From a virus, in the IMG/VR virus record IMGVR_UViG_3300010354_006541, positions 5,855 to 69,854 of that record: a stretch of DNA of 64,000 nt. One strand, given 5' to 3'. Shown in pieces: positions 27,949 through 64,000 of the stretch (position 1 is its first letter; each line of letters starts with the position of its first letter). The position numbers were made by a program, and so were the translations under genes. The notes below the pieces were generated by a model, which had not been told where the DNA came from, made no database searches, and saw only the letters and a list, made by a program, of their open reading frames with translations.

Positions 27949-28140
27949 TTACCAATGTCTAATGACGTTGGCAATAATAAAAAGACAGGTAATCACATGT
28001 ATAATTACCCAAAAGGTTTTTAAGAATAGTGCTATACGTGCTTCACGAACAGTTAAAATAGGGACATCCGGACGATCTTCATCCGTTTGCCCCATCAGGT
28101 GACCAGTGGCTCTGGCCCATATTTTTTCTAAACTGTTCAT
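27949..28140 (-). CDS. Small membrane protein
   Basis: 63 aa, C-terminal TM helix, coupled to neighbours. Confidence 0.6.
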
Positions 28141-47524: not shown

Positions 47525-48188
47525 TGGCCCACGACCTTTCTTTGCACCAGAAGCAGTTTTCGCAAATGGGAATATTCTGTCCCGGTAAGTATGTTTTATA
47601 ATTTATACCCTCGAATTCACCTTCACAACTTCTTGTAATTTTTAACAAGTCTAAAATATCATTCTTATAATACTGATTAATGATCCAATCTTTTTTAGTA
47701 TTAACAAATGGATGACAGATAGCAACACCGTCGTGTAGAAAATATGGAGGGATGTGTCCCTGATTACGATCTTCTAATGCACCTTGTATTTCTATATCCG
47801 GATTCTGATTGATACCTCCATACAACGCATCTAATTTATATTTGTGCGCTATGTACTCGTTGTGTGATCGTAATATGATTTGATTACCGCTTTTTAGTTT
47901 GCCATACTCGTCTATAATATTTGGACCTTTATCAGCCCATTCTAGTTCAGGCGGTATTAAATTTCTATGAACAAAAAATTTATTTTTAAATCGAGTTTTA
48001 AACCAATCGATAACTTGATCGGCTACATATTCCTGCCAAGGCCTCGTTTTCCATAATCTTATTTGATTGGTAAAATGGATTTCTGCGGTGGTACTAGAAC
48101 ATATTAGATACGAAAGTAAAGCACTATCTGCTCCACCGCTAATACTAATGCCAATTTTAGTCCATTCTGGTCTTAGGTAAAGTTCCAT
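47508..48188 (-). CDS. QueC-like PP-loop ATPase (adenine nucleotide alpha-hydrolase)
   Basis: SISGGADS, PF...K, TRSC...CENCFWCKER; start from TAAATA-N5-ATG. Confidence 0.7.
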   Translation of the reverse strand: MELYLRPEWTKIGISISGGADSALLSYLICSSTTAEIHFTNQIRLWKTRPWQEYVADQVIDWFKTRFKNKFFVHRNLIPPELEWADKGPNIIDEYGKLKSGNQIILRSHNEYIAHKYKLDALYGGINQNPDIEIQGALEDRNQGHIPPYFLHDGVAICHPFVNTKKDWIINQYYKNDILDLLKITRSCEGEFEGINYKTYLPGQNIPICENCFWCKERSWAIEQSK

Positions 48189-48227
48189 GAATATATTTAA
48201 TCCATTATAGTAGCATATAAATATTTC

Positions 48228-48899
48228 ATGATTTCCGAAACCGAATACTGTGTTGATTCTAATATCATCGAACTCGCCAGGCAAGAGTTAAAAAACTTTG
48301 AAGGTAAGACTGCTCTTAATCAGCCAACAGGAAATTTTTTCTATGATCCGTGGGTCATAAAGGATCAATTTAAAAAAACTGTTTGGGAAGAAATACTTTC
48401 AACATTAAACTTCGATCACGGAGAGGCTAGAATAATTGTCTTAGCCCCAGGCGAAAGTTACATGGCACATGCAGATATTGACGATCGATATCATTTAAAT
48501 TTGCAGGGGAACTATAGTTTCTTAATAGATGTTTTGAATCAACATATGTATCCTACAGTTTCCGATAACAGGTGGTATGAAATGAATGCTGGACAGATTC
48601 ATGCTGCTACCAATTATGGAGAAACGATCAGGGCTCAACTTGTGGTAAGAAAACTATTAGTCCGGACACAATTAGATAAATTTGTACATATTTCGATTAC
48701 TCCGGCAAGTGAACGTTATGATTATAGGTATAGGTTTGATAATGATATCAGTCCATGGTTGAATTCTATGAATAAGTTGAATAAAATAAACAATTTTCAA
48801 TTTAGTAATGCTTCAGTAGAATTTGATGCCGCCGAAGAATTAATTTATGATCTTGTAAATTTTGATAAAAATATATTTGCTATAACTTATGAATTTTAA
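48228..48899 (+). CDS. Aspartyl/asparaginyl beta-hydroxylase-like oxygenase
   Basis: RI..L.PG..Y..HAD..DRYH, H.A.N.G...R..LV. Confidence 0.78.
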   Translation: MISETEYCVDSNIIELARQELKNFEGKTALNQPTGNFFYDPWVIKDQFKKTVWEEILSTLNFDHGEARIIVLAPGESYMAHADIDDRYHLNLQGNYSFLIDVLNQHMYPTVSDNRWYEMNAGQIHAATNYGETIRAQLVVRKLLVRTQLDKFVHISITPASERYDYRYRFDNDISPWLNSMNKLNKINNFQFSNASVEFDAAEELIYDLVNFDKNIFAITYEF

Positions 48900-50476: not shown

Positions 50477-51164
50477 ATAACTTCTTACATTCGTCCATGA
50501 AGTCTGCCGGAAAGTTTGTTTTAAAACTCTCGAATGCTAATAATTGTATATCTTTGAAAGGGGTCGGCCTATCTACATCGATGCCCATAGCAGACATCTT
50601 AGGAAATAGATCTGCTTGTCTGTCTTCGCTGATGTGACTCATTACGTCTCGTAAACTAATCATCGGATCGTTATCTTTGTAGCAGAAAAAATAGTTGATA
50701 CTCTTTAGTTTACCATTGACTATAAAGTAACTGCTAGGATGCAGACTATATTTGTAAATTCCTAACACCTTGTGTGCTTTAAAAATTTCAAACATTTGTT
50801 CACGCCAGTCGGGCAATACACTATCGTAATCTTGAACTATAGGACCGGCAAGTTGCCAGAAGTCTGCACCTTCGATATCAAAATATAATTTTCTTTTTTC
50901 CAAATCTATATTAGTGATATTCGGTACTAGGTCAGGATATGAGTTACGCATCTGGGTGATAAAATTTACTTCTCGCAACCATTTTTCTTCCATTAACTCT
51001 GGATCAACAACTTGATTTTGACCTTTATGATAATCAGTATCGTTATGATACCATTGACAAAATGTTTTTCTATCTTTACTGATAAGGCTAGTGTAAATCA
51101 AATTATTACGACACAGCCCTTTACCTGGAACATCATTATAGTAGTATTCGAATTCTGTTTTCAT
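50469..51164 (-). CDS. Kinase-like fold protein (paralog of 40165-40866)
   Basis: W.REV.......P.I..ID, PDW.EQ, HK.LG.YK.SLHP; start from TAAGTA-N5-ATG. Confidence 0.5.
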   Translation of the reverse strand: MKTEFEYYYNDVPGKGLCRNNLIYTSLISKDRKTFCQWYHNDTDYHKGQNQVVDPELMEEKWLREVNFITQMRNSYPDLVPNITNIDLEKRKLYFDIEGADFWQLAGPIVQDYDSVLPDWREQMFEIFKAHKVLGIYKYSLHPSSYFIVNGKLKSINYFFCYKDNDPMISLRDVMSHISEDRQADLFPKMSAMGIDVDRPTPFKDIQLLAFESFKTNFPADFMDECKKLYV

Positions 51165-51195
51165 GTACATACTTAGCGGATAAGTATGTACATGA
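51161..51195. repeat. Perfect 15-bp inverted repeat forming a bidirectional promoter/start junction
   Basis: TCATGTACATACTTA-GCGGA-TAAGTATGTACATGA. Confidence 0.9.
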
Positions 51196-52007
51196 TTAGA
51201 GGTATTGGCGGTAAGCCCTACATAAATTTAGATCCTTTTTTGGATGTAAAAGGTTTTATAAATCTTCATGCAGAAATGTGTAAAGGATTCGCTTTGGCTA
51301 GAGATTATGCCAAAGAAGGAACTTGGATGAAGCCTGGCTTTGATCAAAGCAGAGGTAGTTATATTTGGAATTGGAAACCTATCTATAAAGCACATGAGGA
51401 GTATCTGGCATTACCAGACGATCATCCTATAAAGGTGCAGGGCAAAGAAATCTATCCTACAGATTTTAAGGACTATAAACAGCGCAATTTGTTTACACGT
51501 TATTTGAAAAGTTCTTTAGATGCCAATGATCCCTACATATATTATTTTTTATGGAACGAAGGCGATTGGAATGAACGTAATGCCGAACGTCAAAAGACTG
51601 AGGAAAGCCGATACTTTCCAGGTGTTGTCCGTTGGGTAGAAAATCTTCAGGAACAAGGTATCATAGATCGCATAGGTCGTGTGATATTTTTCCATTGTGA
51701 TCATAATGGTAAAGCATTTGAACATAGAGATTTAGATGCAAATAATGGTGTGTTTGAAAATGACTATTATACACCACACAATAATGAATTCATTCATATA
51801 CGTTATAGAACTAGGCGAGGATTCTATATATGGGATCCGGATACCCAAGACAAACATTATGTAAACTCACATGCTACCTTTTGGAACGATCAAGATTGGC
51901 ATGGAGGCGAATCAAGTCTTGAGCAAGAATACAGCCTACGAGTCGACTGTAAATTTACACCCGAATTTAGACAGCGCATAGGTATAGATCATCTTAATTT
52001 TTACTAA
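51192..52007 (+). CDS. Fe(II)/2OG-type oxygenase (divergent)
   Basis: GRV.F, EHRD, WN..DWHGG......SLRVD. Confidence 0.65.
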   Translation: MIRGIGGKPYINLDPFLDVKGFINLHAEMCKGFALARDYAKEGTWMKPGFDQSRGSYIWNWKPIYKAHEEYLALPDDHPIKVQGKEIYPTDFKDYKQRNLFTRYLKSSLDANDPYIYYFLWNEGDWNERNAERQKTEESRYFPGVVRWVENLQEQGIIDRIGRVIFFHCDHNGKAFEHRDLDANNGVFENDYYTPHNNEFIHIRYRTRRGFYIWDPDTQDKHYVNSHATFWNDQDWHGGESSLEQEYSLRVDCKFTPEFRQRIGIDHLNFY

Positions 52008-52501
52008 TGAAATACTTAGGTAATTATCAGTCATGGATTGATCCTCTCTGGGAACATTTAATAATGACCAGAGACGGTCAAGCCCGTCCCCGAGATTGGC
52101 CGCCGGCCACAGCGGTAGAATCTGCCGAATATTCTAAATATCAACTAGCAGGTTATGATCTAAATGCTGTTAATTGGTGGGTATATGAGTATGGGGACAT
52201 ATATGTAAATGTAAACCCTCCGTGGACCAAAGGAAAGATACACTGGTGGTTTACTAAAATGATGCCCGGACAGTTTATGCCAGTGCATACTGATCCTCAT
52301 GCGCATGATCAAGAATGCTATAGATATTGGATTCCGTTACAAGACTTTCAAATCGGTCATATATTTCTATACGGAAATAAAATGATTAATGATTACAAGG
52401 CAGGGGATGTGTTTCAGTTTGAAAATGAAAGAGACCTTCATGGTGCAGCCAACATAGGTCATACTCCTAGGATTTCATTGCTGATTACCGAATATAAATA
52501 G
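52007..52501 (+). CDS. Fe(II)/2OG-type oxygenase
   Basis: PGQFMPVHTD, LHGAANIG..PR. Confidence 0.78.
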   Translation: MKYLGNYQSWIDPLWEHLIMTRDGQARPRDWPPATAVESAEYSKYQLAGYDLNAVNWWVYEYGDIYVNVNPPWTKGKIHWWFTKMMPGQFMPVHTDPHAHDQECYRYWIPLQDFQIGHIFLYGNKMINDYKAGDVFQFENERDLHGAANIGHTPRISLLITEYK

Positions 52502-52512: not shown

Positions 52513-53442
52513 ATGAATCAAAAAATCTATCTACCCAACAATGTATCTATAATGGTCAATAATCTGTGCAACATGACTTGTAGTCATTGTGCAGGATTAG
52601 CCCTTTATGATTTTTTAGGCACATTTGACTGGGACGAATCTGCCGAGCGATACAAACGCTGGTCTGAAATTCTTGAAACAGAAAAACTTTCTATCTGCGG
52701 GGGTGAACCATATCTGCATCCGGATTTAGAAAACTGGTTTGACAACATTAGATCTTTATGGTCTAAAACTCCTATAGAGATTATGACCAACGGAACTAGA
52801 TTATCAAAACGTATAGATTTATCTAGAAAGTTTATACAAGATGGTAATTCGTGTATAGTAGTTTCCTGTCACGATTCTGCAACTTTTGATAGTATTCGTA
52901 ATGATATTTTAGAAATACTAAAACCATGGAAAGAAAATTTTACATTCACAGAATCATCTAATGAAGGAATTAATTCGTGGAAAGGAATTAGTTATTTCAT
53001 AGAGGGCAGAGAGGTAATAAAGTATCAATTAGTTGTAGATATGGTTCCGCCATATCATAAAAAGGTAGAACACGGAACAGTATATTTTGAAATGGGCGGA
53101 GATAGAGAAGCCAGTTATGCTAAATGTCCTTGGAGAGATGCGATAACTTTTCAACACGGTATACTATACAAATGCCCCCCTGTGGTAAATTATGGTGAGG
53201 CTAAAACACAGGTAAAATATGAAGAAGCGGCTGCTATTGTTTTAGACCAATACAAAGGCTGTGATCCATTTGATCAACAAGAAAATATAGAATATTTTTT
53301 TAACACTCTTCAACAATCTATTTCTGTATGTGAGTTATGTGCATTTGACAAACAGGAAGATACATTAAGTTTTAGTAGAAAGGTAGTGCTAGATCCTAGC
53401 ATGAAGAAAAAATTCAGACAATTTAAAATACAAGAAATATGA
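52513..53442 (+). CDS. Radical SAM enzyme
   Basis: CNMTCSHC, GGEP, MTNG, CP...LYKC...CELC. Confidence 0.9.
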   Translation: MNQKIYLPNNVSIMVNNLCNMTCSHCAGLALYDFLGTFDWDESAERYKRWSEILETEKLSICGGEPYLHPDLENWFDNIRSLWSKTPIEIMTNGTRLSKRIDLSRKFIQDGNSCIVVSCHDSATFDSIRNDILEILKPWKENFTFTESSNEGINSWKGISYFIEGREVIKYQLVVDMVPPYHKKVEHGTVYFEMGGDREASYAKCPWRDAITFQHGILYKCPPVVNYGEAKTQVKYEEAAAIVLDQYKGCDPFDQQENIEYFFNTLQQSISVCELCAFDKQEDTLSFSRKVVLDPSMKKKFRQFKIQEI

Positions 53443-53918
53443 AATACATTGGTAATTTCTCAGAATACATAAAAGATGAATGGGTTGATGAAGTCTTAGC
53501 ACTGCCTAGAGAATGGCCGAGACCTTTCTGTGAAAAAAGTAATGAGCATGAAAGATTGTCTAAAGCAGGCTACGATCTATCTCATTCTCATTGGGCTGTG
53601 GTTGAGCCGTATCATGTTAATTTTCAAATAGAATTTCCTTTTTTAACACATATAACTCAATGGTGGATTGCCAGACTATTTCCTGGACAGTTTATGCCCA
53701 TGCATGTCGACCCTCATCCCGATAACCAACAAGGGAATTTTTATTGGATTCCTATGCAGGATTATCATCCAGGACACATTTTTATTATCGAAGATGAATT
53801 TATCAAAGATTATAAAAAAGGTGATGTTTATGCATTTAATAATCTAAGAGACTATCACGGATCATCTAATATAGGAATGATTCCTAAACTGACTATATTG
53901 GTAGCAGAGTATTCATGA
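53439..53918 (+). CDS. Fe(II)/2OG-type oxygenase (paralog of 52007-52501)
   Basis: PGQFMPMHVD, YHGSSNIG..PK. Confidence 0.78.
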   Translation: MKYIGNFSEYIKDEWVDEVLALPREWPRPFCEKSNEHERLSKAGYDLSHSHWAVVEPYHVNFQIEFPFLTHITQWWIARLFPGQFMPMHVDPHPDNQQGNFYWIPMQDYHPGHIFIIEDEFIKDYKKGDVYAFNNLRDYHGSSNIGMIPKLTILVAEYS

Positions 53919-54568
53919 GAATAGGTTTTTTCGGTGACAGTTTTTGTATGGAGTTTGAAAACATACATAGTATAGAATATGGTTATGATACCTATCTTAC
54001 TATGATAAAAGATTACTACTCTGCAGAAATAGTAAATCTAGGAGAAGGAGGAAGTTCAGTATGGGATGTAATCATCAACCAGTTTCCTTCATTTATAGAT
54101 AATCCCCCGGACATTTGTTTTTTCTGTTGGACTGATCCAAATAGAATATTTCATAGAACTTTTAGAAGTTTGACCGAGGGCAGTGTCTTACAATTAAAAG
54201 AAAAAGATATAACTGAAGATCATCAAAAACAAAAAGATGTCTTTGAAGCGGCTAAGCAGTATTTTTTAAAATTACACGATAACGAAAAATCTAAAATAGA
54301 AGCGATAGCCGCATTACATTATTTTGATGATTATATCTTAGAAAAACTATCGCATAAAACTAAAATAGTACACATGTGGAGTTTTGAAAAGTACTACGAT
54401 TGGAAACATGGTATTGGAATTAGTACTCCTCTTATAGAATTTACTAATTTAAAAAATGAACACCCTCAAGAAGATTGGGCTCCTAATCACTTAGGCGATA
54501 GTGCAAAAAATCAAAAAGTATTTCAGTTGATTAAAGATACTATCGATGCCCATCATCTGCTTGCATAG
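53915..54568 (+). CDS. SGNH/GDSL hydrolase-like protein
   Basis: FFGDSF, NLGEGGSS, WT...R, NH. Confidence 0.6.
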   Translation: MRIGFFGDSFCMEFENIHSIEYGYDTYLTMIKDYYSAEIVNLGEGGSSVWDVIINQFPSFIDNPPDICFFCWTDPNRIFHRTFRSLTEGSVLQLKEKDITEDHQKQKDVFEAAKQYFLKLHDNEKSKIEAIAALHYFDDYILEKLSHKTKIVHMWSFEKYYDWKHGIGISTPLIEFTNLKNEHPQEDWAPNHLGDSAKNQKVFQLIKDTIDAHHLLA

Positions 54569-55634
54569 TAAAGTTTATATCAACATTTTTAATTTTATTT
54601 TTTAAAGCAGAGACAACAGTATTTTGGGCTGTAAGTCTATGTTGTAAAGAATATTTCGCAGCAGTACCTTCATAACAAAAAATGTTTGATAAGTTGACTA
54701 GGGTTTTGAGATCGGGGTCAAGGTGATCGATTAATTCAAGATCGTTGAGCAGATCAGTTTTAATAAACTCATAATCTATACCATCTTTTTTAATACAGTT
54801 TTCTTTGTAATGGTCTAAAGACTTTTGATTATAATCATAGAAAACTACAACACCACTAGTTATTAAATCCAGATATAGGGTACCGCTTGCAGGTATCACT
54901 ACTTGATTATATCTTTCTGTAATACCAGTAGACCATTCTGTGTTTGTAGTATGAACAAACTCGTTTTTACAAAAATTAAATTTGTATTCTATATACTCCG
55001 AGTGTTTATAATATTCTTGTTCTACTTCGGGGTAGTAATGTTTTTTATTGTTCCTAATAGATTCGTCAAATACTAATACAGGAAGATTGTTTTTGAAAGA
55101 TAAACTTAATAGATTCCAACCGTGGCATCTATTATTATAAAGTTTTTCTGTTGTTCCTTTTGATACAGTCTTAGGAGTGTAATCGTCGTGAAAATTTTCT
55201 GTACTTCTTAACGGTTCTATCTGTTGATGCAGAACATTACATTCTAATTTTCCCACTTCGGGGTAATTTAATTGTCTATAATATTTTAAATTAATAACAT
55301 AACACTGATGATGTAGTTCGTAATAGGCATCGTATTTTGATCTATCTAATATATGACCTGCTAGAAAAAAATCATTTGTTATAAGATTGTTTAGAGAATC
55401 AAAAAATGCGTACCCGTTTATATACTCGGTTCCAGGGCTCATTATAACAGCATAGTCGTAGTCAGCAAGTTTGCTTAAAAGACGATCTTCGTCTGTGTCT
55501 ATTAATACTCTATATCCTTTGATATAGAGATTTGAGATTGTAAAATCTAAAATATTTTGTATTGTGGTTTTAATTTCTTGGTTAGCATATGTTGAAATAT
55601 CATTGACTATCCCAAAAATAATTTTATCGTTCAT
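54540..55634 (-). CDS. Hypothetical enzyme-like protein
   Basis: 364 aa; GHILD, YYELH.QC..INL, C-terminal FYD..D....SNIF.Y. Confidence 0.6.
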   Translation of the reverse strand: MNDKIIFGIVNDISTYANQEIKTTIQNILDFTISNLYIKGYRVLIDTDEDRLLSKLADYDYAVIMSPGTEYINGYAFFDSLNNLITNDFFLAGHILDRSKYDAYYELHHQCYVINLKYYRQLNYPEVGKLECNVLHQQIEPLRSTENFHDDYTPKTVSKGTTEKLYNNRCHGWNLLSLSFKNNLPVLVFDESIRNNKKHYYPEVEQEYYKHSEYIEYKFNFCKNEFVHTTNTEWSTGITERYNQVVIPASGTLYLDLITSGVVVFYDYNQKSLDHYKENCIKKDGIDYEFIKTDLLNDLELIDHLDPDLKTLVNLSNIFCYEGTAAKYSLQHRLTAQNTVVSALKNKIKNVDINFTMQADDGHR

Positions 55635-56592
55635 CTTTATGAATTTTCAATACATTTATTTTATTCTTTTCGATCCCTATATATTCACCGGGACACATAC
55701 TACATTCGTCTATACTACAATAATGTGTGGCAGCAAATCGATCCAATTCTTCTTCGGTAGATGTTTCTAAATCTACAGGCTTATAGGCTAGATATTTCTG
55801 CCACTCGGGATCATCGACTAGATTATATTTTTCTAATAACCTTTTTAATGTGCCTAATGCGCCGCACTTATAAATTTTCTTATCGTGTAAAAAGGCACAG
55901 AACTGACTAGGACAACTATTTTTATATGCATCTGCAGGATTACTATTGAAAGGTTTAGGTATTCCGTTTACTTTATTGACTATGGTTTGAAATACAGGAG
56001 ATTCCATATAATGTATCCCCCAATTCTCTTTCATGTAGGTGATGTCGTTTGGATCTCTTGTCTCAAAGTTTATACCTTTGTTTTTAACATATTCTTTCCA
56101 GTTATCTGTTCCTGTTTCTAAGTTAAAAACATCATACCACCAAAGATGAGCAGGCACGGTTTCTTCTAACCCTAGATTCTTTCCTATGGTGTGAACAGCA
56201 TTGACCATTGCGTCTTTACTCATAAACAACGGAGTATGATTACAAACCTGTACCCATACTCGATATTCCTTTACGAGGTCAACCACCCAGTCGATATTTT
56301 TATGCAATAACATGCCATTGGTAGACATGAAAATTGTTTTATTAGGTTCGATACTTCTTATACACTTGATAATTTCTAATATTTTATCTTTGTAAAGAAA
56401 CGGTTCTCCACCAATCATACTCCAGTTTTCTACATCAAACTTTTCGTTGGCCAGTAGTATACTTTCTCTGATAGATTCTATACTAGGGCCTTCAAAATCT
56501 AATTCGTCACTTCTAGAGTCGCAATTGGAACAGGCTAGGTTACAGTTATTTCCGTAGAATGCATCTAATAATTTAATGTGTCTGTTTTTCAT
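55624..56592 (-). CDS. Radical SAM enzyme (paralog of 52513-53442)
   Basis: CNLACSNC, GGEP, STNG, CP...C...IYKC...CSMC. Confidence 0.9.
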   Translation of the reverse strand: MKNRHIKLLDAFYGNNCNLACSNCDSRSDELDFEGPSIESIRESILLANEKFDVENWSMIGGEPFLYKDKILEIIKCIRSIEPNKTIFMSTNGMLLHKNIDWVVDLVKEYRVWVQVCNHTPLFMSKDAMVNAVHTIGKNLGLEETVPAHLWWYDVFNLETGTDNWKEYVKNKGINFETRDPNDITYMKENWGIHYMESPVFQTIVNKVNGIPKPFNSNPADAYKNSCPSQFCAFLHDKKIYKCGALGTLKRLLEKYNLVDDPEWQKYLAYKPVDLETSTEEELDRFAATHYCSIDECSMCPGEYIGIEKNKINVLKIHKDER

Positions 56593-57247
56593 ATTGTTTT
56601 CTGTAACTTCTTGCTACCAGTTCTACAAAATCGTTTTTTCGATTTCCGGGTATTCCGTGAGCGATCAAATGTATCCTAGACACATTAGAATTATTTACAA
56701 AACTATGTACGTTTCTAATATTAATAATAAATGCTTTACCTTCTGTAAAAGGCACTGTACCATGTCCTTCTAATGTCATAAAACAGTCTTGAGGATGTAT
56801 AATGGCAATATTGATCGGTACTCCGAACTCAAGCATGTCTATGTCTTTTTCTCCCGGTAATCTTCCAGGAGCATCGCTGTGCGGGCGTATTCTTCCGCCA
56901 GGCTCTAATTCCATAAATCGAATTCGTCTATATTTTTCGTAAGGAAATGCTTCCCAAAACTTTTTAATATTAGGGGTATGTTCGCTTATGCTAGTCCATT
57001 TATAAGGTACATCTTCCTCTTTGGTATACCCATAGTTTGTCCATGCTCCGGTCTTATCGACATCGATGCCATGTATACAACTACTGTTCCATCCCGGATG
57101 ATCCGCTCCTCGATGATCTACAAACTTTGCCGCAGCGGTTTCTTTTTTCCATGCGTTCAGATCAAAATCAAGATCGAGTTCTAACCAACCAAAATTACTC
57201 TTATTCAATAGCCAATCTGCTATTTCGTACGAACTAGAATTTATCAT
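56573..57247 (-). CDS. Aspartyl/asparaginyl beta-hydroxylase-like oxygenase
   Basis: RIRFM.LEPGG.I.PHSD, H.F.N.S...RIHLI; start from TAAGTA-N5-ATG. Confidence 0.8.
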   Translation of the reverse strand: MINSSSYEIADWLLNKSNFGWLELDLDFDLNAWKKETAAAKFVDHRGADHPGWNSSCIHGIDVDKTGAWTNYGYTKEEDVPYKWTSISEHTPNIKKFWEAFPYEKYRRIRFMELEPGGRIRPHSDAPGRLPGEKDIDMLEFGVPINIAIIHPQDCFMTLEGHGTVPFTEGKAFIINIRNVHSFVNNSNVSRIHLIAHGIPGNRKNDFVELVARSYRKQYEKQTH

Positions 57248-57286
57248 ATTATTACTTAGCACCATATTGTTTTCATAAGTAAGAGT

Positions 57287-58165
57287 ATGACTGCTCCACA
57301 TGATAAACGATCTCTGCCCTATGGAGGGGCCTTTTCTATTTTAGATTCGGTAGTCATAGACTATATGAAAAGTCTGAATTTATTAGAAGGACTTTGGGAA
57401 GAAAATATTACTAAAGATTTTTGTACAGAGTACAAAGATTGGATATCCAAAACTAAAAATAACGCAATAAAAGGATTAGATCTATTCCCTCATAGTGTCT
57501 ATTCAAACGGTACTACGCAGGCTTTTGAAATGTTTTATATTAGAAACAGGCACAGACGATTTAGATGTTTCAAAGGAGAATATCTGTACCATCAGTTGGC
57601 CTGGAGAAACAGTTGGACCGATTGGAAATTTATCGAAGACGATGCATTGAGACCTAACGACGCTGTGGTTATCAGTTTACCTTTTTCTAATACAGGCAAT
57701 GAACACGAACAGTTAGAATGGTTATTAGAGACCTGTACTAATTTAGGAATACCTGTACTAGTTGATTGTGCTTATTTCGGAGTATGCAATTATTTAAATT
57801 TTGATTTTACTTCGGTATGTATTACAGATGTAGTTTTTAGTTTAAGTAAAACTTTTCCTGTAGCACATGCTAGAATTGGCATGCGTTTGACTCGCACCGA
57901 CGATGATGACCTAATGTTTGTCTACGATAAGATCAATTACAATAATAGAATAGGTGCCAAACTGGGTTTAGAATTAATTAAGAATTTTAGTCCGGATTAT
58001 ATCTATGACAAATATGCCAACCAGCAAAAAGTAATCTGTGACGATCTTGACATAGAACCGTCTAATACAATATTGTTTGGATTAGACCATAAAGGCCGAT
58101 ATCCGGAGTATAGCAGAGGAACAAATACTAATCGTCTAGGTTTGTATAAACACTATGAAGTCTAA
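57287..58165 (+). CDS. PLP-dependent fold-type I enzyme (aminotransferase/decarboxylase-like)
   Basis: GTT.AF, P...TG, VDCAY, FSLSK (Schiff-base Lys)...RIG. Confidence 0.8.
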   Translation: MTAPHDKRSLPYGGAFSILDSVVIDYMKSLNLLEGLWEENITKDFCTEYKDWISKTKNNAIKGLDLFPHSVYSNGTTQAFEMFYIRNRHRRFRCFKGEYLYHQLAWRNSWTDWKFIEDDALRPNDAVVISLPFSNTGNEHEQLEWLLETCTNLGIPVLVDCAYFGVCNYLNFDFTSVCITDVVFSLSKTFPVAHARIGMRLTRTDDDDLMFVYDKINYNNRIGAKLGLELIKNFSPDYIYDKYANQQKVICDDLDIEPSNTILFGLDHKGRYPEYSRGTNTNRLGLYKHYEV

Positions 58166-59216
58166 GTTTATTAACTTTGAATACTTTCGATTGAACGAAC
58201 AGCAATCGTACGAAAAAATCACCTCCGAAATATACTCAGCATCGTTACAAGGGTATACTTCAGTGATAGGACTTATGTTGGCCGACGGATTTCTTTACAA
58301 AAATAATGATAGATGGAATATACTACATAACAATATTATAGAGTATGCTAAATCATTAGGAATTAAAATTTCTATAATTTCGGGTATGAGTCATAAAAAT
58401 AATGTTAACTGCGAAACTATTCCTTTTAATTTTTATCTTCATACTGTATGGATGAGTTATAAAAATCGGCAAGTGGGCACCTACAATTCGAACACCGGAA
58501 AATTTTTATTTCTAGGAGGTGTTCCTGATAGAGATAATAGAATTGGTTTACTTTATAATTTATATAAACAAGATTTACTAAAAAATGCAGAGTGGAGTTT
58601 TTTTACTCCTTGGACCGAAACACAAAAAGAAAATTCTTTGAAATATTTTTCTTGCATTGATGATTACGAAAACTTTGTAGAGTTTGCCGCACGTGGTGTG
58701 GATGACTTATACGACTCTTCTAAACATTATGGCACTGGTGAAATTCCAATAGCCACAGAATGGACCAACGATTCTGCATGGATTGAACCTGCGGTCTTTC
58801 ATAAGACCAGCCTGAGTTTAATATCAGAAGGACACCCCGGTGACGAAAACAACAACAGTGAGTTTGCCACTGAAAAAATTTATAGAGTATTCGTTCAAGG
58901 ACATCCTTTTCTATTAGCAGCGAATCCATCAATCTTCAAGCATCTTAAAGATTTAGGATTTAAAACATTTGAAAATTATTTTCCTATTCAGGATTATGCC
59001 ACAGTCTATCCAGAAGAAACAAGATTAGAAAAGTTAGTGGAAAATTTAAAATACTTCGTATCTAACGACATAGATTTTGGTTCTGACGTAGAATTTAACA
59101 AACAACATTTTTGGAAACTAGCAGAAGAAAATGTAAAAATACTAGACAGTTTGAATGCTGATCCTAGTGATATAGATTTTTATTTTAATCGGAAAGGGTT
59201 TGGACACTTACTATGA
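58155..59216 (+). CDS. Glycosyltransferase-like protein
   Basis: FLFLGG...R, ISE....F.TEK......HPF......LK.LGFKTF, resembling the GT10-type TEK motif. Confidence 0.45.
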   Translation: MKSKFINFEYFRLNEQQSYEKITSEIYSASLQGYTSVIGLMLADGFLYKNNDRWNILHNNIIEYAKSLGIKISIISGMSHKNNVNCETIPFNFYLHTVWMSYKNRQVGTYNSNTGKFLFLGGVPDRDNRIGLLYNLYKQDLLKNAEWSFFTPWTETQKENSLKYFSCIDDYENFVEFAARGVDDLYDSSKHYGTGEIPIATEWTNDSAWIEPAVFHKTSLSLISEGHPGDENNNSEFATEKIYRVFVQGHPFLLAANPSIFKHLKDLGFKTFENYFPIQDYATVYPEETRLEKLVENLKYFVSNDIDFGSDVEFNKQHFWKLAEENVKILDSLNADPSDIDFYFNRKGFGHLL

Positions 59217-60268
59217 AAATAGTATCTAACAATGATTGGGATCCGCTCAAAGAAATAATAGTCGGTCGTGCAGACAAGGCTCGTGTACCTACAGTCGATC
59301 TCAGTACTATGAGCATGAGTTATACCAACTATAGTATAGAAAAGATAAAACCTTTAGAAGGAGAATATCCTCAGTGGTTAATAGATGAAGCCAACGAAGA
59401 TGCCGAGGAACTATGTTCAGTGTTGACACAGGCCGGAGTAAAAGTTCACAGGCCGGAATATGTAGATCATTCTAAAACATTTTCTACACCCGATTGGACC
59501 ACTACCGGTTGGTATACATGGTGTCCTAGAGATCTGTTATTACCATTAAACAATCTAATGATCGAAACTCCTAGTCCTTGCCGCAGCAGACTATTTGAAA
59601 CAAGAGCATATCATAATATAATGATAGATGCGGTCAAAGACGGAACCGAATGGATCGCTGCTCCAAAGCCTAGATTGTTAGACGAGTCATATCAGTTTAA
59701 AGAATTGAGTAAGCCCAGTCTCAATAACTTAGAACCTATATTTGATGCTCCTAATTGTATAAGATTAGGACGAGATATTTTGTTTCAGATCTCTAACACT
59801 GGTAATTGGTTAGGATTCCAGTGGTTAAAAAATACTCTAGAGCCTAGAGGTTATAGACTACATGCAGCAGAACATATCTACAGTTTTGCACACTTTGACA
59901 GTACTATCATTCCGCTTCGTCCAGGTTTGGTATTATTAAACAGCACAAGAGTTACACCTCGTAATTGTCCTAAATTATTTGCCGACTGGGATAAGATATA
60001 TTTCAGTGATGTAAATGTGAATGCTGTCACTCAGAGTGGACCGGGAAGTGTAAGTCCATGTAGCCCCTACATAGGAATGAATATCCTTAGTATAGATCAA
60101 AATACAGTAATAGTCGGGAGAGATCAAACTAATCTCATCAGCGTATTAGAACAGAAAGGATTCACTGTTATCCCCACTAGAATGCGTCATGCACAAACAC
60201 TCAGCGGCGGGTATCATTGTGCTACATTAGACCTAGTTCGAGAAGGAAATCTTGAGGATTATTTTTAA
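59213..60268 (+). CDS. Amidinotransferase (AGAT/StrB1-like)
   Basis: NDWDPLKEIIVG, CPRD, FDA.N, H.DST, GG.HC.T.D..R (Cys-His-Asp triad). Confidence 0.9.
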   Translation: MKIVSNNDWDPLKEIIVGRADKARVPTVDLSTMSMSYTNYSIEKIKPLEGEYPQWLIDEANEDAEELCSVLTQAGVKVHRPEYVDHSKTFSTPDWTTTGWYTWCPRDLLLPLNNLMIETPSPCRSRLFETRAYHNIMIDAVKDGTEWIAAPKPRLLDESYQFKELSKPSLNNLEPIFDAPNCIRLGRDILFQISNTGNWLGFQWLKNTLEPRGYRLHAAEHIYSFAHFDSTIIPLRPGLVLLNSTRVTPRNCPKLFADWDKIYFSDVNVNAVTQSGPGSVSPCSPYIGMNILSIDQNTVIVGRDQTNLISVLEQKGFTVIPTRMRHAQTLSGGYHCATLDLVREGNLEDYF

Positions 60269-61743
60269 TGCAGAATATTATTTCCAGACATATGATCAGT
60301 GATAACTTTGTAGGTTTGCCTTTATATAAGGGGCAACGCTACTCTAAAGATGATCTGTCTTCAAAAATTGATCTATGGAAATATATTTTAAAATACAAAT
60401 GTTCCGCAAAAGCAGGAGAGTCCATCCTTATAGGTATGCAGGTACTGAATATAGATTATCTTGCTATTTGTTTTGCTTCCGCAGAATTATCTTTACGTAT
60501 TGTTATTGTTGATTATAGTAGGAACGATGATTTCAAAGATCTTACCTATTACGATCCTAAGACTAAAATTCTATCACCTATAGATATATTCTTACACGAT
60601 TTTTCTAAAGAAGAATTTGAACAACATCCTAAAGCATTATCTAAGTTTACATTTTTTTCTCAATGTGCTAATCGAACATATAGTATCTATAATGACATAG
60701 ACTTCACTGTAGAGAACACAGAAGAATTTTCTAATGCTAAAAACATTTTTCCTAGTCCAGATGATATTGCTATGAGATGCACCAGTAGTGGTACTACCGG
60801 TACTCCTAAGATAGTAGAACATACTCACGAGTTTCTTTATAAAGTTTCTGTTCGAAACTCAGGAAAATTTTTCGGTCAATGCTTACATATTAGAAATTTA
60901 AATCACGGTAGTAGTCTTGCAGTGTATCTCTTACCTACATTAGTCAGCGATCGAGTTTCAACTCATATATTCTACGATCTCGGAGCGAGAGATACAGTAG
61001 ATGGTGTAGACGAAATCGAACCATTCGATAATTTTATTATTGATTTTAAAGATTTTACCGATACACTAGACTATGTAATATTCCCCTATCCTTTTATGAT
61101 AGATAAATTCATAGATGCTAGTATTAGACACAAAGTGCAATGGCCTAATCTAAATGTTCAGACACTGTCTTACATACAGGATAAACCTAAGCAGGCAATT
61201 GCTAATGGTATAATTAAATCTGTTACGAGTATATTCGGATCAAATGAAACCAGCGGCCCAGTTTTTGTTGCCTATATTGATAAGGACCGTGTTAATCAAG
61301 ACTCTGCATTGTTTGATAGCATAGATGATTTTTATAAAATAAACTTGTACGAAGGTGGAGTATTGGGCGTAACTATGCCTGTATATGAATCAGAGATTAT
61401 TACTAACGACATATTTGAAAAACAAGGAATTTTTTATAGGCATCGGGGACGCAGCGACTTAGTTAAAATTAATGGTGAAGTATTAGACATTAAAATAATA
61501 AACGAATTAAATTCTAATAACACATCTGCATACCTAATTACCGATACTGTAAAAAACTGTTTGTATCTAGCATTTTGGGATACACAGGATGATGCTACAG
61601 TAAAAGAATATTCTAATTTTTTCTCTAATAATTTTAATCGTATACAAATAGACAAGACTGCGGTGTTAAATAAAAATAAGTTCTTAACGGGTATAAAAAT
61701 AGACAACGAACTACTCAGAGAATATTTTAGAAATTATGTTTGA
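60268..61743 (+). CDS. ANL-superfamily adenylate-forming enzyme
   Basis: TSSGTTGTPK (A3), FGSNET (A5), TND (A7), GRSD..KING (A8), terminal KID (A10). Confidence 0.8.
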   Translation: MQNIISRHMISDNFVGLPLYKGQRYSKDDLSSKIDLWKYILKYKCSAKAGESILIGMQVLNIDYLAICFASAELSLRIVIVDYSRNDDFKDLTYYDPKTKILSPIDIFLHDFSKEEFEQHPKALSKFTFFSQCANRTYSIYNDIDFTVENTEEFSNAKNIFPSPDDIAMRCTSSGTTGTPKIVEHTHEFLYKVSVRNSGKFFGQCLHIRNLNHGSSLAVYLLPTLVSDRVSTHIFYDLGARDTVDGVDEIEPFDNFIIDFKDFTDTLDYVIFPYPFMIDKFIDASIRHKVQWPNLNVQTLSYIQDKPKQAIANGIIKSVTSIFGSNETSGPVFVAYIDKDRVNQDSALFDSIDDFYKINLYEGGVLGVTMPVYESEIITNDIFEKQGIFYRHRGRSDLVKINGEVLDIKIINELNSNNTSAYLITDTVKNCLYLAFWDTQDDATVKEYSNFFSNNFNRIQIDKTAVLNKNKFLTGIKIDNELLREYFRNYV

Positions 61744-61987
61744 TAAGCATCTCAGTGAAAGTAAAGTTACATATCTGTCGCATCTAGGATGGGCATTGCT
61801 TGCGGGTGTGCGTTTAATTTTTTCTGGGTTCGCTAGTATCATACACGGGTTCGTGCCGACGCTGTTTAATGGAACTACCCCAAGAACAATAATTGATATC
61901 TATCATTCACATTTGGAAAATCATCCCAATAGTGAATATAAAGATATGATAAATGAGGCCAAGAAAAAATATGAAAAAAAGAATTAG
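61736..61987 (+). CDS. Small hydrophobic protein (resembles DUF6356)
   Basis: HL......Y..H..W............IHG..P.LF. Confidence 0.55.
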   Translation: MFDKHLSESKVTYLSHLGWALLAGVRLIFSGFASIIHGFVPTLFNGTTPRTIIDIYHSHLENHPNSEYKDMINEAKKKYEKKN

Positions 61988-63206
61988 TATAGTAGGGGCA
62001 GGAACTTCTGGATACCTATCTGTTTTATATTTTTGTACAAAATATCCCGACTACGACATTACTTGGATATACCCAGAAAACAATGTTACTATTGGAGTAG
62101 GTGAAGGAACTGTACCTCAGGTAACGGAATTTCTTAAAGATCTTGGTATAACATTCAAACATGTTATAGAAGATATCGGGGGTAGTTTAAAGTTAGGAAT
62201 TAAATTAGAAAACTTTCTAGAAGAAGATTTCTTTCATCCGTTTGGTGGCCCAGACGAAGAAACAGCCGAACTGGTCTATATCATGGAAAACAATAAGATT
62301 CCAGAAAACATTGAATCTTACGATATATCATTTCATTTCAGTGTTGCTAATCTTGCAAAATTTTTAGATAAGTGGTTTGAAAGATTTGATAACCTTAAGA
62401 TAGAAAGAAGAACAGTAAATTCTGTAGATGAAGTTGACTGTGATTGGTTAATTGATTGTACAGGATTTAGAAGATCGTTTATTAATAATTATTTTGAAAA
62501 TAACTTTGTTCCAATTGATAAATCTATTCCGAATAATAAAGCATTTGTTTATAGGGCCGCTATACCAGATCATAAGAGATTTGCCTATACAACGTGCATA
62601 GGAATGAAACATGGATGGATATGGAATATACCTTTAAAAAATGAAATCGGTATGGGTTATGTTCACGACGACCGTTTCGACGTCAAAGAGGAATTTTTAA
62701 GTTATCTAGAACAAGAAGGTTTTGGCCGTCCTGAAGTACGCGAAGTTCGCATGGTTACAGGAAGAAATAAAAATCATTTTAAGGATTTAGGAAATAAAAA
62801 AATTGTTTCTGTGGGATTAAGTAGTGCATTTTTAGAACCCCTAGAAGCAACAGGTTTATATTTTACTGTCTTTGGAATTCAAAAACTAGATGACCTCATA
62901 CATGAAAAGATGAGTCCGGAAGAATATAATACGGCCCTTAACTATGAATTTGATGTAACAGTTGATTTTATTGTAGCACATTATAAATTTAGTCATCATA
63001 CCAACGAGTATTGGAACTTCTATAAGAATGTTTCTATAGAGTTATATAGACCAAATAATGCATTTCCGATAAGATCTTGGGGATATATCTTAAGAGATAA
63101 ATCGAAGATTCCTAAAATTACAGATAATCAAATTTCTAAACTCAAAGATGCAGATTCGTACTACGAATGGTACAAAAAATATTTTGACAGGGAGTTGGTT
63201 AATTGA
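61971..63206 (+). CDS. Flavin-dependent halogenase (tryptophan halogenase family)
   Basis: GAGTSG, GVGEGT, K.GIK (catalytic Lys position), DCTGF, GWIWNIP (WxWxIP), FLEPLEATG. Confidence 0.85.
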   Translation: MKKRISIVGAGTSGYLSVLYFCTKYPDYDITWIYPENNVTIGVGEGTVPQVTEFLKDLGITFKHVIEDIGGSLKLGIKLENFLEEDFFHPFGGPDEETAELVYIMENNKIPENIESYDISFHFSVANLAKFLDKWFERFDNLKIERRTVNSVDEVDCDWLIDCTGFRRSFINNYFENNFVPIDKSIPNNKAFVYRAAIPDHKRFAYTTCIGMKHGWIWNIPLKNEIGMGYVHDDRFDVKEEFLSYLEQEGFGRPEVREVRMVTGRNKNHFKDLGNKKIVSVGLSSAFLEPLEATGLYFTVFGIQKLDDLIHEKMSPEEYNTALNYEFDVTVDFIVAHYKFSHHTNEYWNFYKNVSIELYRPNNAFPIRSWGYILRDKSKIPKITDNQISKLKDADSYYEWYKKYFDRELVN

Positions 63207-63688
63207 TAAAATTCTATACCACAATAGAAAACTTTTGGCAGGAAGATCTTAAAAATCATTCTTATGCTAGGACCGTTCCATTTGTGGCTAGAAATTTCGA
63301 TCATCTAGATCGAAACTATTATAATAGAGATCATCTTTTACAAAGTTTCAATGACGAGTTACCTTGTGCAGATAGATTCGAGCAAGTACTGAATGTTAAG
63401 AATTCTTCCGTAAGTTGGACATGTATTCTCCCCAACACCATCCTACCTACTCATAGAGACACATTCTATACTCTTCGTCAACAGCATAATGTAGAAATAG
63501 ATCAATGTTTTAGGTATTTGATTTTTTTAGAAGATTGGTCTTTTGGGCATATTGCTGTATTCGAAAATAATATTATAACAAATTGGAAAGCCGGGAATGT
63601 TTGGATTTTTGATTCGGAAGAATTACACTACGCAGTCAACGCCAGCAATGTTCCTTTTCACAGTTGTCAGGTTAGTACATTCAAATAA
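63203..63688 (+). CDS. Fe(II)/2OG-type oxygenase
   Basis: P...LPTHRD, RYLIFLEDW..GH, H.A.N. Confidence 0.75.
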   Translation: MIKFYTTIENFWQEDLKNHSYARTVPFVARNFDHLDRNYYNRDHLLQSFNDELPCADRFEQVLNVKNSSVSWTCILPNTILPTHRDTFYTLRQQHNVEIDQCFRYLIFLEDWSFGHIAVFENNIITNWKAGNVWIFDSEELHYAVNASNVPFHSCQVSTFK

Positions 63689-63713
63689 AAAGGGCACCTA
63701 GGTGCCCTTTTTT
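63687..63713. terminator. Bidirectional intrinsic terminator
   Basis: AAAAAGGGCACC-TA-GGTGCCCTTTTTT perfect palindrome with U-tracts on both strands, between convergent genes. Confidence 0.85.
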
Positions 63714-63726: not shown

Positions 63727-64000
63727 TTATGGATTCAAACCGTACAATGGTAATCCATACTCTGTGTTACCAACTTTAACTTTTAGATAATTTACAACTC
63801 CGCCACCTACATTAACCTGTCCTGAACCGCCGCCTGCTGTAACAACAGAACCAGAATGCAGATTTAGAATTTTATTCACACCGTCAAAGGCTAACACACT
63901 ATCGAAACCCGTGCCATTCCAGAATGCGAAATCCATCTTACTTGGAATGTAACCATCAACGGGTGTATTTTCTACATTGACTCTCAGGGTACACATAAGA
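63727..64000 (-). CDS. C-terminal end of a probable tail-fibre/virion protein (truncated by window)
   Basis: Frame open to window edge; Gly-rich, ends YLKVKVG..EY.LPLY. Confidence 0.5.
   Translation of the reverse strand, partial: LMCTLRVNVENTPVDGYIPSKMDFAFWNGTGFDSVLAFDGVNKILNLHSGSVVTAGGGSGQVNVGGGVVNYLKVKVGNTEYGLPLYGLNP

Follow-up and report, generated by a model that had tools for sequence, protein, structure and literature searches.

The window analysed here is a stretch of 64,000 nucleotides of viral DNA (positions 5,855 to 69,854 of IMG/VR record IMGVR_UViG_3300010354_006541), and it belongs to a 69.9-kb viral record estimated to be 20% complete. At 57287-63688 of the window, seven co-directional and tightly packed open reading frames (ORFs), here called g1 to g7, lie on the + strand, with consecutive ORFs overlapping by 11, 4, 1, 8, 35 (or 17) and 4 nt. 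The first, g1 (57287-58165, 292 aa), is predicted to encode a fold-type I pyridoxal phosphate (PLP)-dependent enzyme, class I/II aminotransferase-like and HisC/CobD-like. It is followed by g2 (58155-59216, 353 aa), assigned as a glycosyltransferase-like protein of GT-B fold from a phage-specific family; g3 (59213-60268, 351 aa), a predicted L-arginine-dependent amidinotransferase of the StrB1/AGAT type; g4 (60268-61743, 491 aa), a putative divergent adenylate-forming (ANL) enzyme and the first gene of an accessory cassette; g5 (61736-61987, 83 aa), a DUF6356 mini-protein; g6 (61953-63206, 417 aa, or 411 aa from an ATG at 61971), a predicted short flavin-dependent halogenase and the rare third gene of that cassette; and g7 (63203-63688, 161 aa, TTG start), a small cupin that resembles Fe(II)/2-oxoglutarate (2OG) oxygenases of the Asp_Arg_Hydrox kind. 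A preliminary description of this DNA pictured a self-contained natural-product operon. That picture is corrected here to a core phage cassette, which probably makes a guanidino-bearing sugar-type unit, with an optional add-on.

The row of overlapping genes (overlaps of 1-35 nt), a TAAGTA-N5-ATG element, the catalytic motifs quoted in the preliminary description and a terminator are all in the sequence. The element stands at the start of g1 (57276-57289, + strand), and a mirror copy on the - strand (57258-57245) precedes Met19 (57247) of the divergent cupin gene described below. Four exact copies occur in the window versus 1.24 expected, with at least four found in 5 of 100 shuffles, and all four lie at two divergent gene junctions, at 51.17 kb and 57.26 kb. 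At these junctions the mirror-image elements (51162-51194 and 57245-57289) are only 20-40 nt apart. Related forms, ATAAGTA or ATAAATA placed 5-6 nt ahead of an ATG, recur at some homologues of g1 and of the divergent cupin. The element is real and may serve as a promoter, in which case transcripts that start from the mirror pairs would be leaderless or nearly so. A looser pattern, ATAARTA-N3-8-ATG, is not enriched in the window (5 versus 6.1 expected), and on this count the element was not upheld as a general late-promoter-like signal. Consensus scans of the window for sigma-70-like promoters and for terminators gave matches at chance level, and the terminator scan overlooked the hairpin that stands directly after the g7 stop. 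That intrinsic terminator (63687-63713; stem-loop 63687-63712, then T6) has an A-run before it and a T-run after it and lies between convergent genes; its stability is -16.3 kcal/mol (z -3.44), matched in 0 of 200 shuffles, and it is usable from either side.

The amidinotransferase g3 was compared with the PDB by phmmer, and matches StrB1 (1bwd) with an E-value of 8e-89 over residues 5-350. Further matches, each over approximately residues 3-351, are to HsvA (2.6e-63), AGAT (5e-59) and SxtG (2.5e-57), and the PHROG match is to phrog_25854 (4.5e-39). The catalytic motifs align with those of StrB1: the Cys in HCATLD, the His and Asp in HFDST, and the FDA and CPRD motifs, with residue roles that we take to be those seen in the StrB1 and AGAT structures. 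To judge from these alignments, g3 is a genuine amidinotransferase of the StrB1/AGAT type, and arginine-dependent activity is predicted.

The assignment of g1 comes from its modelled fold and its lysine, and not from its sequence-family scores. The match to Pfam Aminotran_1_2 (E 0.0049, 16.5 bits) is below the cut-off of 19.7, the NCBIfam matches to valine-pyruvate transaminase (4.8e-6) and CobD (3.7e-4) are both far under their cut-offs, and the best result of a profile search against PDB sequences is an aspartate aminotransferase at only E 0.18. The AlphaFold2 (AF2) model has a predicted local distance difference test score (pLDDT) of 91.4, and Foldseek matches it best to HisC, OvoB and aminotransferases (E 6.5e-10 to 1e-8, probability 1.00), with CobD also found and at least 500 matches at E <= 0.001. 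The Schiff-base lysine K188 (in SLSK), D160 and Y163 are the same in all 22 homologues, and g1 is therefore best described as a predicted fold-type I PLP enzyme. Enzymes of the HisC and CobD types act on phosphorylated small molecules.

For g2, no family match was found in Pfam, PHROG or NCBIfam, and a profile search against PDB sequences gave nothing significant. The AF2 model (pLDDT 88.1) was compared with known structures by VIA-align, with a best Z of 10.5 (root-mean-square deviation 4.6 over 258 residues), and GT-B transferases make up nearly all of the 50 chains listed, including PimA/PimB' and the T4 beta- and alpha-glucosyltransferases. With Foldseek, the top match is the T4 beta-glucosyltransferase (E 1.8e-4), and most of the matches listed are GT-B enzymes. 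The model suggests that g2 has the two-Rossmann-domain GT-B fold. Its family is often duplicated in related loci. A contig search with a single peptide pattern from the g2 GT-B alignment returned one locus (L055, NYWG01000113.1), a contig of 10,997 bases filed under a Verrucomicrobiales metagenome-assembled genome and collinear with the phage island described here: a cupin, an SGNH-like gene, a 364-aa gene of no recognised family, a radical S-adenosylmethionine (SAM) gene, the divergent cupin, a PLP gene, two GT-B genes, a radical SAM gene, an amidinotransferase and a g7-type cupin. Because it is the same phage island, this contig gives no cellular context for g2; either a phage contig was mis-binned here or the filing hints at the host.

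The ANL enzyme g4 matches Pfam AMP-binding only around motif A3, with 30.3 bits against a cut-off of 29.9. The sequences TSSGTTxxPK, FGSNET, ND and GRxDxxxIxG and a C-terminal K477 are invariant in 14 of 14 homologues; we take these to be the ANL motifs A3, A5, A7 and A8 and the A10 lysine, and g4 is assigned on their strength as a divergent member of the ANL adenylate-forming superfamily. No NCBIfam ANL subfamily comes near its cut-off with g4 (best 22 bits versus cut-offs of 317-1000), the best NCBIfam E-value across all 14 ANL members is 1e-6, and a profile search of g4 against PDB sequences gave nothing significant. The 457 metagenomic homologues carry no functional name beyond a generic acyl-CoA synthetase label.

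The sole Pfam match of g5 is to DUF6356 (2.4e-13). Five histidines (H5, H16, H37, H59 and H63) and two serines are invariant, S9 in SK(V)TY and S34 in ASIIHG. These serines are outside any carrier-type motif: there is no D-S motif, no phosphopantetheine-type serine motif of the (D/G)xDS type and no match to a PP-binding family. As had been remarked for this 83-aa protein in the preliminary description, a phosphopantetheine serine motif is absent, and g5, as far as its sequence goes, cannot be recognised as a carrier protein. A single hydrophobic segment is present (Kyte-Doolittle 19-residue maximum of 1.68 at residue 18). No fused or longer form of DUF6356 came up when such forms were searched for, although this negative carries little weight; a similarity search returned 223 similar small proteins, none functionally named, and a full-text literature search gave one incidental mention and no function in print.

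The halogenase g6 matches Pfam Trp_halogenase (PF04820) at 3.2e-57, with 194.9 bits against a cut-off of 21, phrog_2928 at 1.8e-78, and, in the PDB, PyrH (5.3e-39), RebH and VirX1 (9.3e-34). Its start is probably the ATG at 61971, because its relatives align from residue 7-9. GAGTSG (GxGxxG, FAD), GWIWNIP (WxWxIP), the Lys of SLKLGI and the Glu of EPLEATG are present; the lysine of SLKLGI aligns with that of GYKLGI in PyrH, and EPLEATG aligns with EPLESTG. The roles of these motifs are presumably those of characterised halogenases. The FAD motif, WxWxIP, catalytic Lys and Glu of PyrH, RebH and VirX1 (PDB 2wet, 2e4g and 6qgm) all align with g6, but these enzymes are 511-550 aa in length whereas g6 is 417 aa. 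Residues 98-158 of g6 face residues 95-214 of PyrH, so that approximately 60 residues are absent, and the C-terminal substrate module is approximately 30 residues shorter; for both reasons the substrate is probably not free tryptophan. The g6 protein is thus assigned as a flavin-dependent halogenase that does not have the full-size substrate module of tryptophan halogenases.

The cupin g7 matches Pfam Asp_Arg_Hydrox below the cut-off (E 5.3e-4, 20.3 bits versus 22.6), and its best match in a profile search against PDB sequences is a proline 3-hydroxylase at only E 0.05. Its metal-binding triad, H84-x-D86 and H142, is invariant in 19 of 19 sequences, including two window paralogues (52007-52501 and 53439-53918). 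In all, the six enzyme assignments made in the preliminary description (PLP enzyme, GT-like protein, amidinotransferase, adenylating enzyme, halogenase and oxygenase) held when family, fold and motif evidence was brought to bear, the oxygenase as a probable one.

The unit to which these enzymes belong was examined in 44 distinct viral-contig loci anchored on the amidinotransferase, with identities to g3 from 93% down to 36% (labels of the form L001). A search with the ANL gene gave 7 loci, five of them on contigs already in the amidinotransferase set. Families were defined by tblastn and by all-against-all clustering of 1,061 ORFs from the 44 loci and the window; absences are upper bounds, because some locus flanks are cut by contig ends. 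The g7 family (cupin161) is found in 43 of the 44 loci, GT-B in 40, the PLP enzyme and a SPASM-domain radical SAM protein (rSAM-SPASM) in 37 each, a second radical SAM family (that of 55624-56592) and the divergent cupin (cupin242) in 36 each, the 364-aa protein of no family in 33, an Mtd_N-domain protein at the edge of the cassette in 32, and a further cupin of approximately 190 aa in 30. The ANL enzyme is found in 14, DUF6356 in 13 and the halogenase in 2.

The usual + strand operon consists of a radical SAM gene, PLP, GT-B (1-2 copies), rSAM-SPASM, a cupin, the amidinotransferase and cupin161, followed by the convergent Mtd_N-domain gene, and cupin161 is directly after the amidinotransferase in 32 of the 42 loci in which its position is readable. 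Four of the seven families, PLP, GT-B, amidinotransferase and cupin, recur in 37-43 of the 44 loci, but all seven co-occur in only two (L005 and L029) and in the order seen in the window in none. The conserved unit is therefore larger than, and different from, g1-g7: it includes PLP, GT-B, the amidinotransferase and cupin161 together with radical SAM genes, cupin242 and the 364-aa gene. The window has a rearranged version of this core, in which ANL, DUF6356 and the halogenase have been inserted after the amidinotransferase and ahead of cupin161, and with its copies of the radical SAM, rSAM-SPASM and extra cupin genes elsewhere in the island (52513-53442, 46259-47524, 52007-52501 and 53439-53918). 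The preliminary description is supported in part: its enzymology was right and its unit, a self-contained seven-gene operon, was wrong. In the closest relative with long flanks (L004), the operon has two extra genes, 6965-7501 (178 aa, in the cluster of ~190-aa cupins) and 9414-10004 (196 aa), and genes are therefore gained and lost inside the operon.

The ANL and DUF6356 genes occur as a pair, in that order, in 13 of the 14 ANL-positive loci, and the pair has two positions. It lies between the amidinotransferase and cupin161 in the window and in L002-L005, L014 and L037, and after cupin242 on the other strand in L006, L008, L015, L016, L029, L030 and L041; in L045 the ANL gene is also after cupin242, and the next ORF is outside the DUF6356 cluster. 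Where the halogenase is present (the window, L005 and L029), it is directly after DUF6356. A gene like that for UDP-glucose dehydrogenase (UGDH) and one for a short-chain dehydrogenase/reductase (SDR) of the nucleotide-sugar epimerase/dehydratase family are directly downstream of ANL-DUF6356(-halogenase) in eight loci (L002, L003, L006, L016, L029, L030, L037 and L041). In the window this pair, assigned by sequence family, is at 36376-37985 on the + strand (UGDH-like, 250 aa, 36376-37128; SDR, 291 aa). The UGDH-like gene is in 9 of the 14 ANL-positive and 0 of the 30 ANL-negative loci (Fisher p 2.8e-6), a value that is overstated because the loci are related, forming 27 groups at 95% amidinotransferase identity that are not independent. 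The UGDH-like protein keeps the catalytic GGKCLPKD and ends approximately 25 residues later, without the C-terminal UDP-binding domain; the short form (~246 aa) is conserved in nine related loci. ANL, DUF6356 and the halogenase are, then, an optional and movable add-on cassette that travels with the UGDH-like and SDR genes. In a different phage group, two paralogous short halogenases (447 and 421 aa) are in one operon with a radical SAM gene, genes of no family and an SDR epimerase; these are identical 12-kb stretches from seven viral contigs (L057-L063) and an eighth locus (L064) with the same gene matches.

The remaining core genes lie to the left of g1 on the - strand. Cupin242 (56573-57301, 242 aa as called) is like Asp/Asn-hydroxylase Fe/2OG oxygenases (Pfam Asp_Arg_Hydrox, 5.5e-9), and its triad, H123-x-D125 and H181 as numbered from Met19, is invariant in 20 of 20 sequences; a profile search against PDB sequences gave nothing significant. 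Its relatives cover approximately 89-91% of the called ORF and, where coordinates are printed, align from residues 19-22. Because the relatives begin to align about there, the start is probably at 57247 (Met19), and cupin242 and g1 therefore do not truly overlap. Next is the radical SAM gene 55624-56592 (322 aa; paralogue 52513-53442), the product of which has a Cys-rich, SPASM/twitch-like C-terminal part and matches Pfam Radical_SAM (2.5e-11), Fer4_12 (7.9e-9) and, below the cut-off, an NCBIfam twitch-domain radical SAM family (1.1e-6). The 364-aa gene (54540-55634) is seen in viruses only and has no Pfam, PHROGs or NCBIfam family. Its nearest clusters in an Atlas search are all viral and unnamed, with named neighbours below 0.8, which is chance level, and its family has 51 invariant columns. 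Convergent with g7 is the C-terminal end of an Mtd_N-type protein (63727-64000, - strand), 55% identical to L004:13287-14894. Its full-length relatives (381-535 aa) have an Mtd_N (major tropism determinant) domain at the N-terminus, with Pfam Mtd_N matches of 2.5e-9 and 2.7e-6 on two of them, and the neighbour is probably a receptor-binding or fibre protein.

The window comes from a jumbo T4-like myovirus that is uncultured. The nearest counterpart of its clamp loader (50.7%) is that of the Pseudomonas jumbo phage PA5oct, followed by those of Sinorhizobium phage Phosso, Atu_ph07 and RsoM2USA, and a nucleotide search of the operon and of window positions 30-50 kb against 50,697 phage records gave no match. 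Baseplate and tail-fibre genes are at 5-23 kb of the window, and after them comes an island at 36-64 kb, which encodes eight radical SAM enzymes, a QueC-like protein, 2OG oxygenases and many proteins of no family, besides the pair of UGDH-like and SDR proteins. The g1-g7 row is the right-hand end of this tailoring island of radical SAM and sugar enzymes, which is approximately 28 kb in length. One of the radical SAM genes, 46259-47524, has a SPASM domain. Among 34 island proteins, hydrophobicity is transmembrane-like only for DUF6356 and, marginally, for a buried stretch of the ANL enzyme; because of this the chemistry of the island is taken to be cytoplasmic.

Several other genes of the window may be recorded here. 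Within 36376-56592 there are seven further radical SAM genes (starting at 37985, 41979, 42991, 44406, 45373, 46259 and 52513) and a 2OG oxygenase gene at 39569, a radical SAM density that is unusually high for a phage. A PTPS/QueD-like gene (28137-28664; 5.5e-16, which passes the Pfam cut-off), a QueE-like radical SAM gene (45373-46290; phrog_2076, 1e-11) and a QueC-like gene (47508-48284; phrog_1550, 5e-6) hint at a 7-deazaguanine pathway. The window also has a cytidylyltransferase-like gene, and its segment 23377-27955 encodes a KdsA-type enzyme of the DAHP_synth_1 family together with a NifU-like Fe-S scaffold (2.6e-53), an Fe/Mn superoxide dismutase and the UV endonuclease UvdE. A Cpn10-like gene is at 3237-3632 and ThyX at 34680-35369. 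A subtilase gene (Peptidase_S8, 3.2e-26) at 11919-13460 is amid the baseplate and tail-fibre genes and adjoins the gene for a 2258-aa fibre-like protein (15946-22722).

More distant versions of the cassette were found in isolated phages. By tblastn, the amidinotransferase is in 15 isolated-phage records: Synechococcus phage S-SCSM2R (36%), 12 records of Campylobacter phages (32-23%) and two of Enterococcus phages. In S-SCSM2R its neighbours are annotated as glycosyltransferases, an AHBA_syn-family (3-amino-5-hydroxybenzoate synthase-type) aminotransferase, a radical SAM protein and a small 2OG oxygenase related to g7, and the gene neighbourhood includes KdsA and KdsB. The pairing of an amidinotransferase with a g7-related cupin is seen in S-SCSM2R and also in L043 and L044. 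These two loci have three amidinotransferase paralogues (36%, 28% and 21% identical to g3) within 9 kb, along with a g7-like cupin and rSAM-SPASM. In Campylobacter phage CP220 the amidinotransferase is among five radical SAM genes and two nucleotide-sugar-transferase-like genes.

From the gene identities, conservation and modularity described above, we infer a substrate, an order of steps, a product and a target as follows. With moderate confidence, the product is taken to be a sugar-type unit that carries a guanidino group and becomes part of a glycoconjugate, with acylation and halogenation as options. A radical SAM enzyme or an oxygenase would generate a carbonyl on a sugar-type or phosphorylated small substrate, the PLP enzyme g1 would convert the carbonyl to an amine, and g3 would transfer the amidino group of L-arginine to that amine to give a guanidino group. 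The cupins would hydroxylate, and the GT-B enzyme g2 would attach the unit, or a sugar, to an acceptor. The ANL enzyme g4 would most likely adenylate a carboxylic acid and join it to the product; this acid could be a uronic acid that the UGDH-like enzyme supplies, or else an aryl or amino acid. The halogenase g6 could, optionally, halogenate an electron-rich part. Because no carrier protein is present, the ANL enzyme likely joins the acid directly as an amide or ester. Its linkage with the UGDH-like gene suggests a uronic-acid carboxylate as the activated acid; an aryl acid is the alternative, because the halogenase needs an electron-rich partner.

A sugar-type or phosphorylated unit within a glycoconjugate is proposed because sugar-type enzymes are found within and beside all versions of the island, because StrB1 itself acts on a phosphorylated aminocyclitol, a small polyol amine, and because the substrates of the HisC and CobD types, which g1 matches best, are phosphorylated too. 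The KdsA-type and cytidylyltransferase-like genes of the window belong to this sugar context. The leading candidates for the acceptor would be a fibre or receptor-binding protein of the phage, or an envelope glycan of the host that host machinery assembles, and the two are equally possible. The phage's own fibre is a plausible target because the enzymes of the set are all soluble and a receptor-binding-type gene is a conserved neighbour. Decoration of a glycoconjugate is better supported than a diffusible natural product, since the island is in the tail-fibre and host-recognition region and its distant versions are ringed by glycosyltransferases. The sequence from amine to amidination to transfer, proposed in the preliminary description for a natural-product pathway, is still the best reading. 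A more specific version, in which the phage fibre or host surface carries a cationic guanidino sugar that the carrier-independent ANL enzyme and DUF6356 have linked by an amide to an acid halogenated by g6, is a long shot. If true, no virus would have been known before to bear a glycan that is both guanidino-bearing and halogenated, and phages would have a new route to tune adsorption or evade recognition.

A number of points weigh against the sugar-type unit. The product has never been observed. The g1 enzyme is of the class I/II aminotransferase type and not of the DegT/AHBA_syn type that normally aminates nucleotide sugars, and a search of the operon for a nucleotidyltransferase, sugar kinase, flippase, polymerase or lipid-carrier transferase came back empty. 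The match of g2 to GT-B enzymes is one of fold only and points to no particular donor or acceptor, and the UGDH-like protein has no C-terminal UDP-binding domain. Modification of peptides and proteins is another typical setting for SPASM/twitch radical SAM enzymes and for Asp/Asn-hydroxylase-like cupins. The weak QueC- and QueE-like matches and the above-cut-off PTPS match in the window make a link to nucleobases possible. No flavin halogenase is known to act on sugars, so that the halogenated moiety must be another one. Finally, the association of ANL with UGDH comes from related, non-independent loci.

A first alternative is a diffusible secondary metabolite, either released or active within the host. 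It would be a small aminoglycoside-like or guanidino compound, which in this phage would also be acylated and halogenated. The similarity of g3 to the streptomycin enzyme StrB1 (E 8e-89) is what one would expect of it, the combination of radical SAM dehydrogenase, aminotransferase and amidinotransferase resembles aminocyclitol routes, an ANL enzyme and a flavin halogenase are a pairing known from natural products, and the enzymes are all soluble. The authors of the S-SCSM2R study propose antibiotic synthesis for that phage (PMC12801897). Set against this, family scans of the window proteins recognised no inositol or 2-deoxy-scyllo-inosose synthase, kinase, phosphatase, exporter or self-resistance gene, the island is beside fibre and receptor-binding genes, and the glycosyltransferase-rich contexts of the distant versions better fit a polymer or conjugate. 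A lytic jumbo phage would also have little time to gain from a secreted antibiotic. A diffusible metabolite is therefore considered unlikely.

It is likewise doubtful that the enzymes modify a protein or peptide, either a structural protein of the phage such as the Mtd_N neighbour or a small peptide, by hydroxylation, cross-links, glycosylation, conversion of Lys to homoarginine or Trp halogenation. No amidinotransferase of the AGAT/StrB1 type is known to act on proteins, and g3 aligns end to end with small-molecule enzymes, and it is not obvious what the class I/II PLP enzyme and the products of the UGDH-like and SDR genes would do to a protein. None of the recurrent clusters stood out as a conserved gene for a precursor peptide, although no search was aimed at such genes. 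What recommends protein modification is the Asp_Arg_Hydrox family matches, the SPASM domain of the radical SAM gene 46259-47524, the conserved convergent Mtd_N gene, and the presence among the structural neighbours of g2 of the protein O-glycosyltransferases SdgB and GtfA and an O-GlcNAc-transferase-like protein. Further, the proteome of purified S-SCSM2R virions is reported to include a 2OG oxygenase and a second amidinotransferase (PMC12801897).

The high modularity of the island, with genes inserted, moved and duplicated between relatives, and the occurrence of the halogenase in an unrelated phage operon (L057-L064) could also mean that there is no single product, and that independent auxiliary genes have accreted in a hypervariable region where they are co-transcribed and act on different host metabolites. 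This seems improbable, given that the core families co-occur in 33-43 of the 44 loci at amidinotransferase identities of 93% down to 68%, that the amidinotransferase-cupin pair persists at 36% identity, and that ANL and DUF6356 are adjacent in 13 of 14 loci.

Most improbable of all is hypermodification of nucleic acid, in which g2 would be a DNA glycosyltransferase and the cassette would decorate a modified base or nucleotide of the phage DNA, such as an aminomethyl-deazaguanine or the sugar of a hydroxymethyl-pyrimidine. In its favour, g2 has the T4 beta- and alpha-glucosyltransferases among its best structural matches (Z 10.2 and 9.9), the window has PTPS/QueD, QueC-like and QueE-like genes, and Campylobacter phages with the radical SAM-amidinotransferase module have fully deazaguanine-substituted DNA (bioRxiv 10.1101/2023.04.13.536721). 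Against it, the two T4 enzymes are tied with many others and level with GT-B enzymes for lipids and sugars, and two deazaguanine papers name an amidinotransferase, in reference-list entries, only for the unrelated archaeosine enzyme. No TGT/DpdA gene is in the 69.9-kb record, a negative that says little because the record covers approximately 20% of the genome.

The guanidino sugar-type unit is thus retained as the preferred reading. Among giant phages of aquatic origin that have not been cultured, hundreds have a conserved enzyme cassette with a streptomycin-type amidinotransferase, as does at least one cultured cyanophage. If the product is indeed a guanidino sugar, borne by fibres or by the surface of the host, it would be new glycan chemistry and a new lever of phage-host recognition. 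The separable cassette of ANL, DUF6356, halogenase, UGDH-like and SDR genes leads to a testable hypothesis for DUF6356 and points to the class of substrate of a short viral halogenase.

Among known systems, the enzyme most like g3 is StrB1, the L-arginine:inosamine-phosphate amidinotransferase of Streptomyces. It is of the same length class (348 aa versus 351 aa for g3) and aligns with no long gaps, and its catalytic Cys, His and Asp positions are kept in g3. Unlike StrB1, g3 is encoded by a phage, and no streptidine genes were recognised around it: an inositol-type dehydrogenase, a StsC-type DegT aminotransferase, a kinase and a phosphatase were all unrecognised among 11 proteins of the operon and its neighbours and 51 further window proteins. 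The g1 enzyme, as modelled, appears to be of class I/II and unlike the StsC-type DegT aminotransferase of the streptidine pathway.

For the add-on, two systems are comparable. The aminocoumarin ligases NovL and CloL are ANL enzymes that make amides directly and need no carrier protein, and in Campylobacter jejuni the glucuronamide of the capsule is made with UGDH, HisC/CobD-like PLP enzymes and an ATP-dependent amidoligase, which is an ATP-grasp enzyme and not an ANL enzyme. Only logic is shared with these systems (carrier-free activation of an acid, a carboxylate from UGDH, a small amine from a PLP enzyme), and the likeness is one of analogy and not of membership. The ANL-DUF6356-halogenase cassette is the new part, as it is not among the related modules mentioned in the papers cited here.

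The Campylobacter phages CP220 and CPt10 are T4-like, as is the phage of the window, and their amidinotransferase gene also has radical SAM genes around it and nucleotide-sugar-transferase-like genes adjoining it. Their identity to g3 is low (32% for CP220, 23% for the CPt10 type), and no homologues of the PLP, GT-B, ANL, DUF6356 or halogenase genes were detected in the Campylobacter phages. According to Timms et al. (2010, PMC2853527), the radical SAM genes and a 'glycine amidinotransferase' of CP220 and CPt10 are an interchangeable module of unassigned function. S-SCSM2R is a cyanomyovirus, whereas the window is from a PA5oct/Atu_ph07-like jumbo lineage, but the two have in common the amidinotransferase (36%), a small 2OG oxygenase, radical SAM, an aminotransferase and glycosyltransferases, and in S-SCSM2R a PrnA-type halogenase is 7 kb away. 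The cyanophage differs in that its aminotransferase is annotated as one of the AHBA_syn family and its glycosyltransferases as GT2 and GT25, and it has no ANL-DUF6356 cassette. Its ORF305-310 are labelled 'antibiotic synthesis genes' in PMC12801897.

The host recognition clusters of pelagimyophages and cyanomyophages have glycosyltransferases, UDP-glucose dehydrogenase and radical SAM cassettes (Zaragoza-Solas et al. 2020, PMC7029224). A term search of that paper gave no occurrence of amidinotransferase; its authors propose modification of the host O-antigen, which is as yet a prediction. Like the island in the window, such a cluster, as described there, is a large variable island beside the tail-fibre genes.

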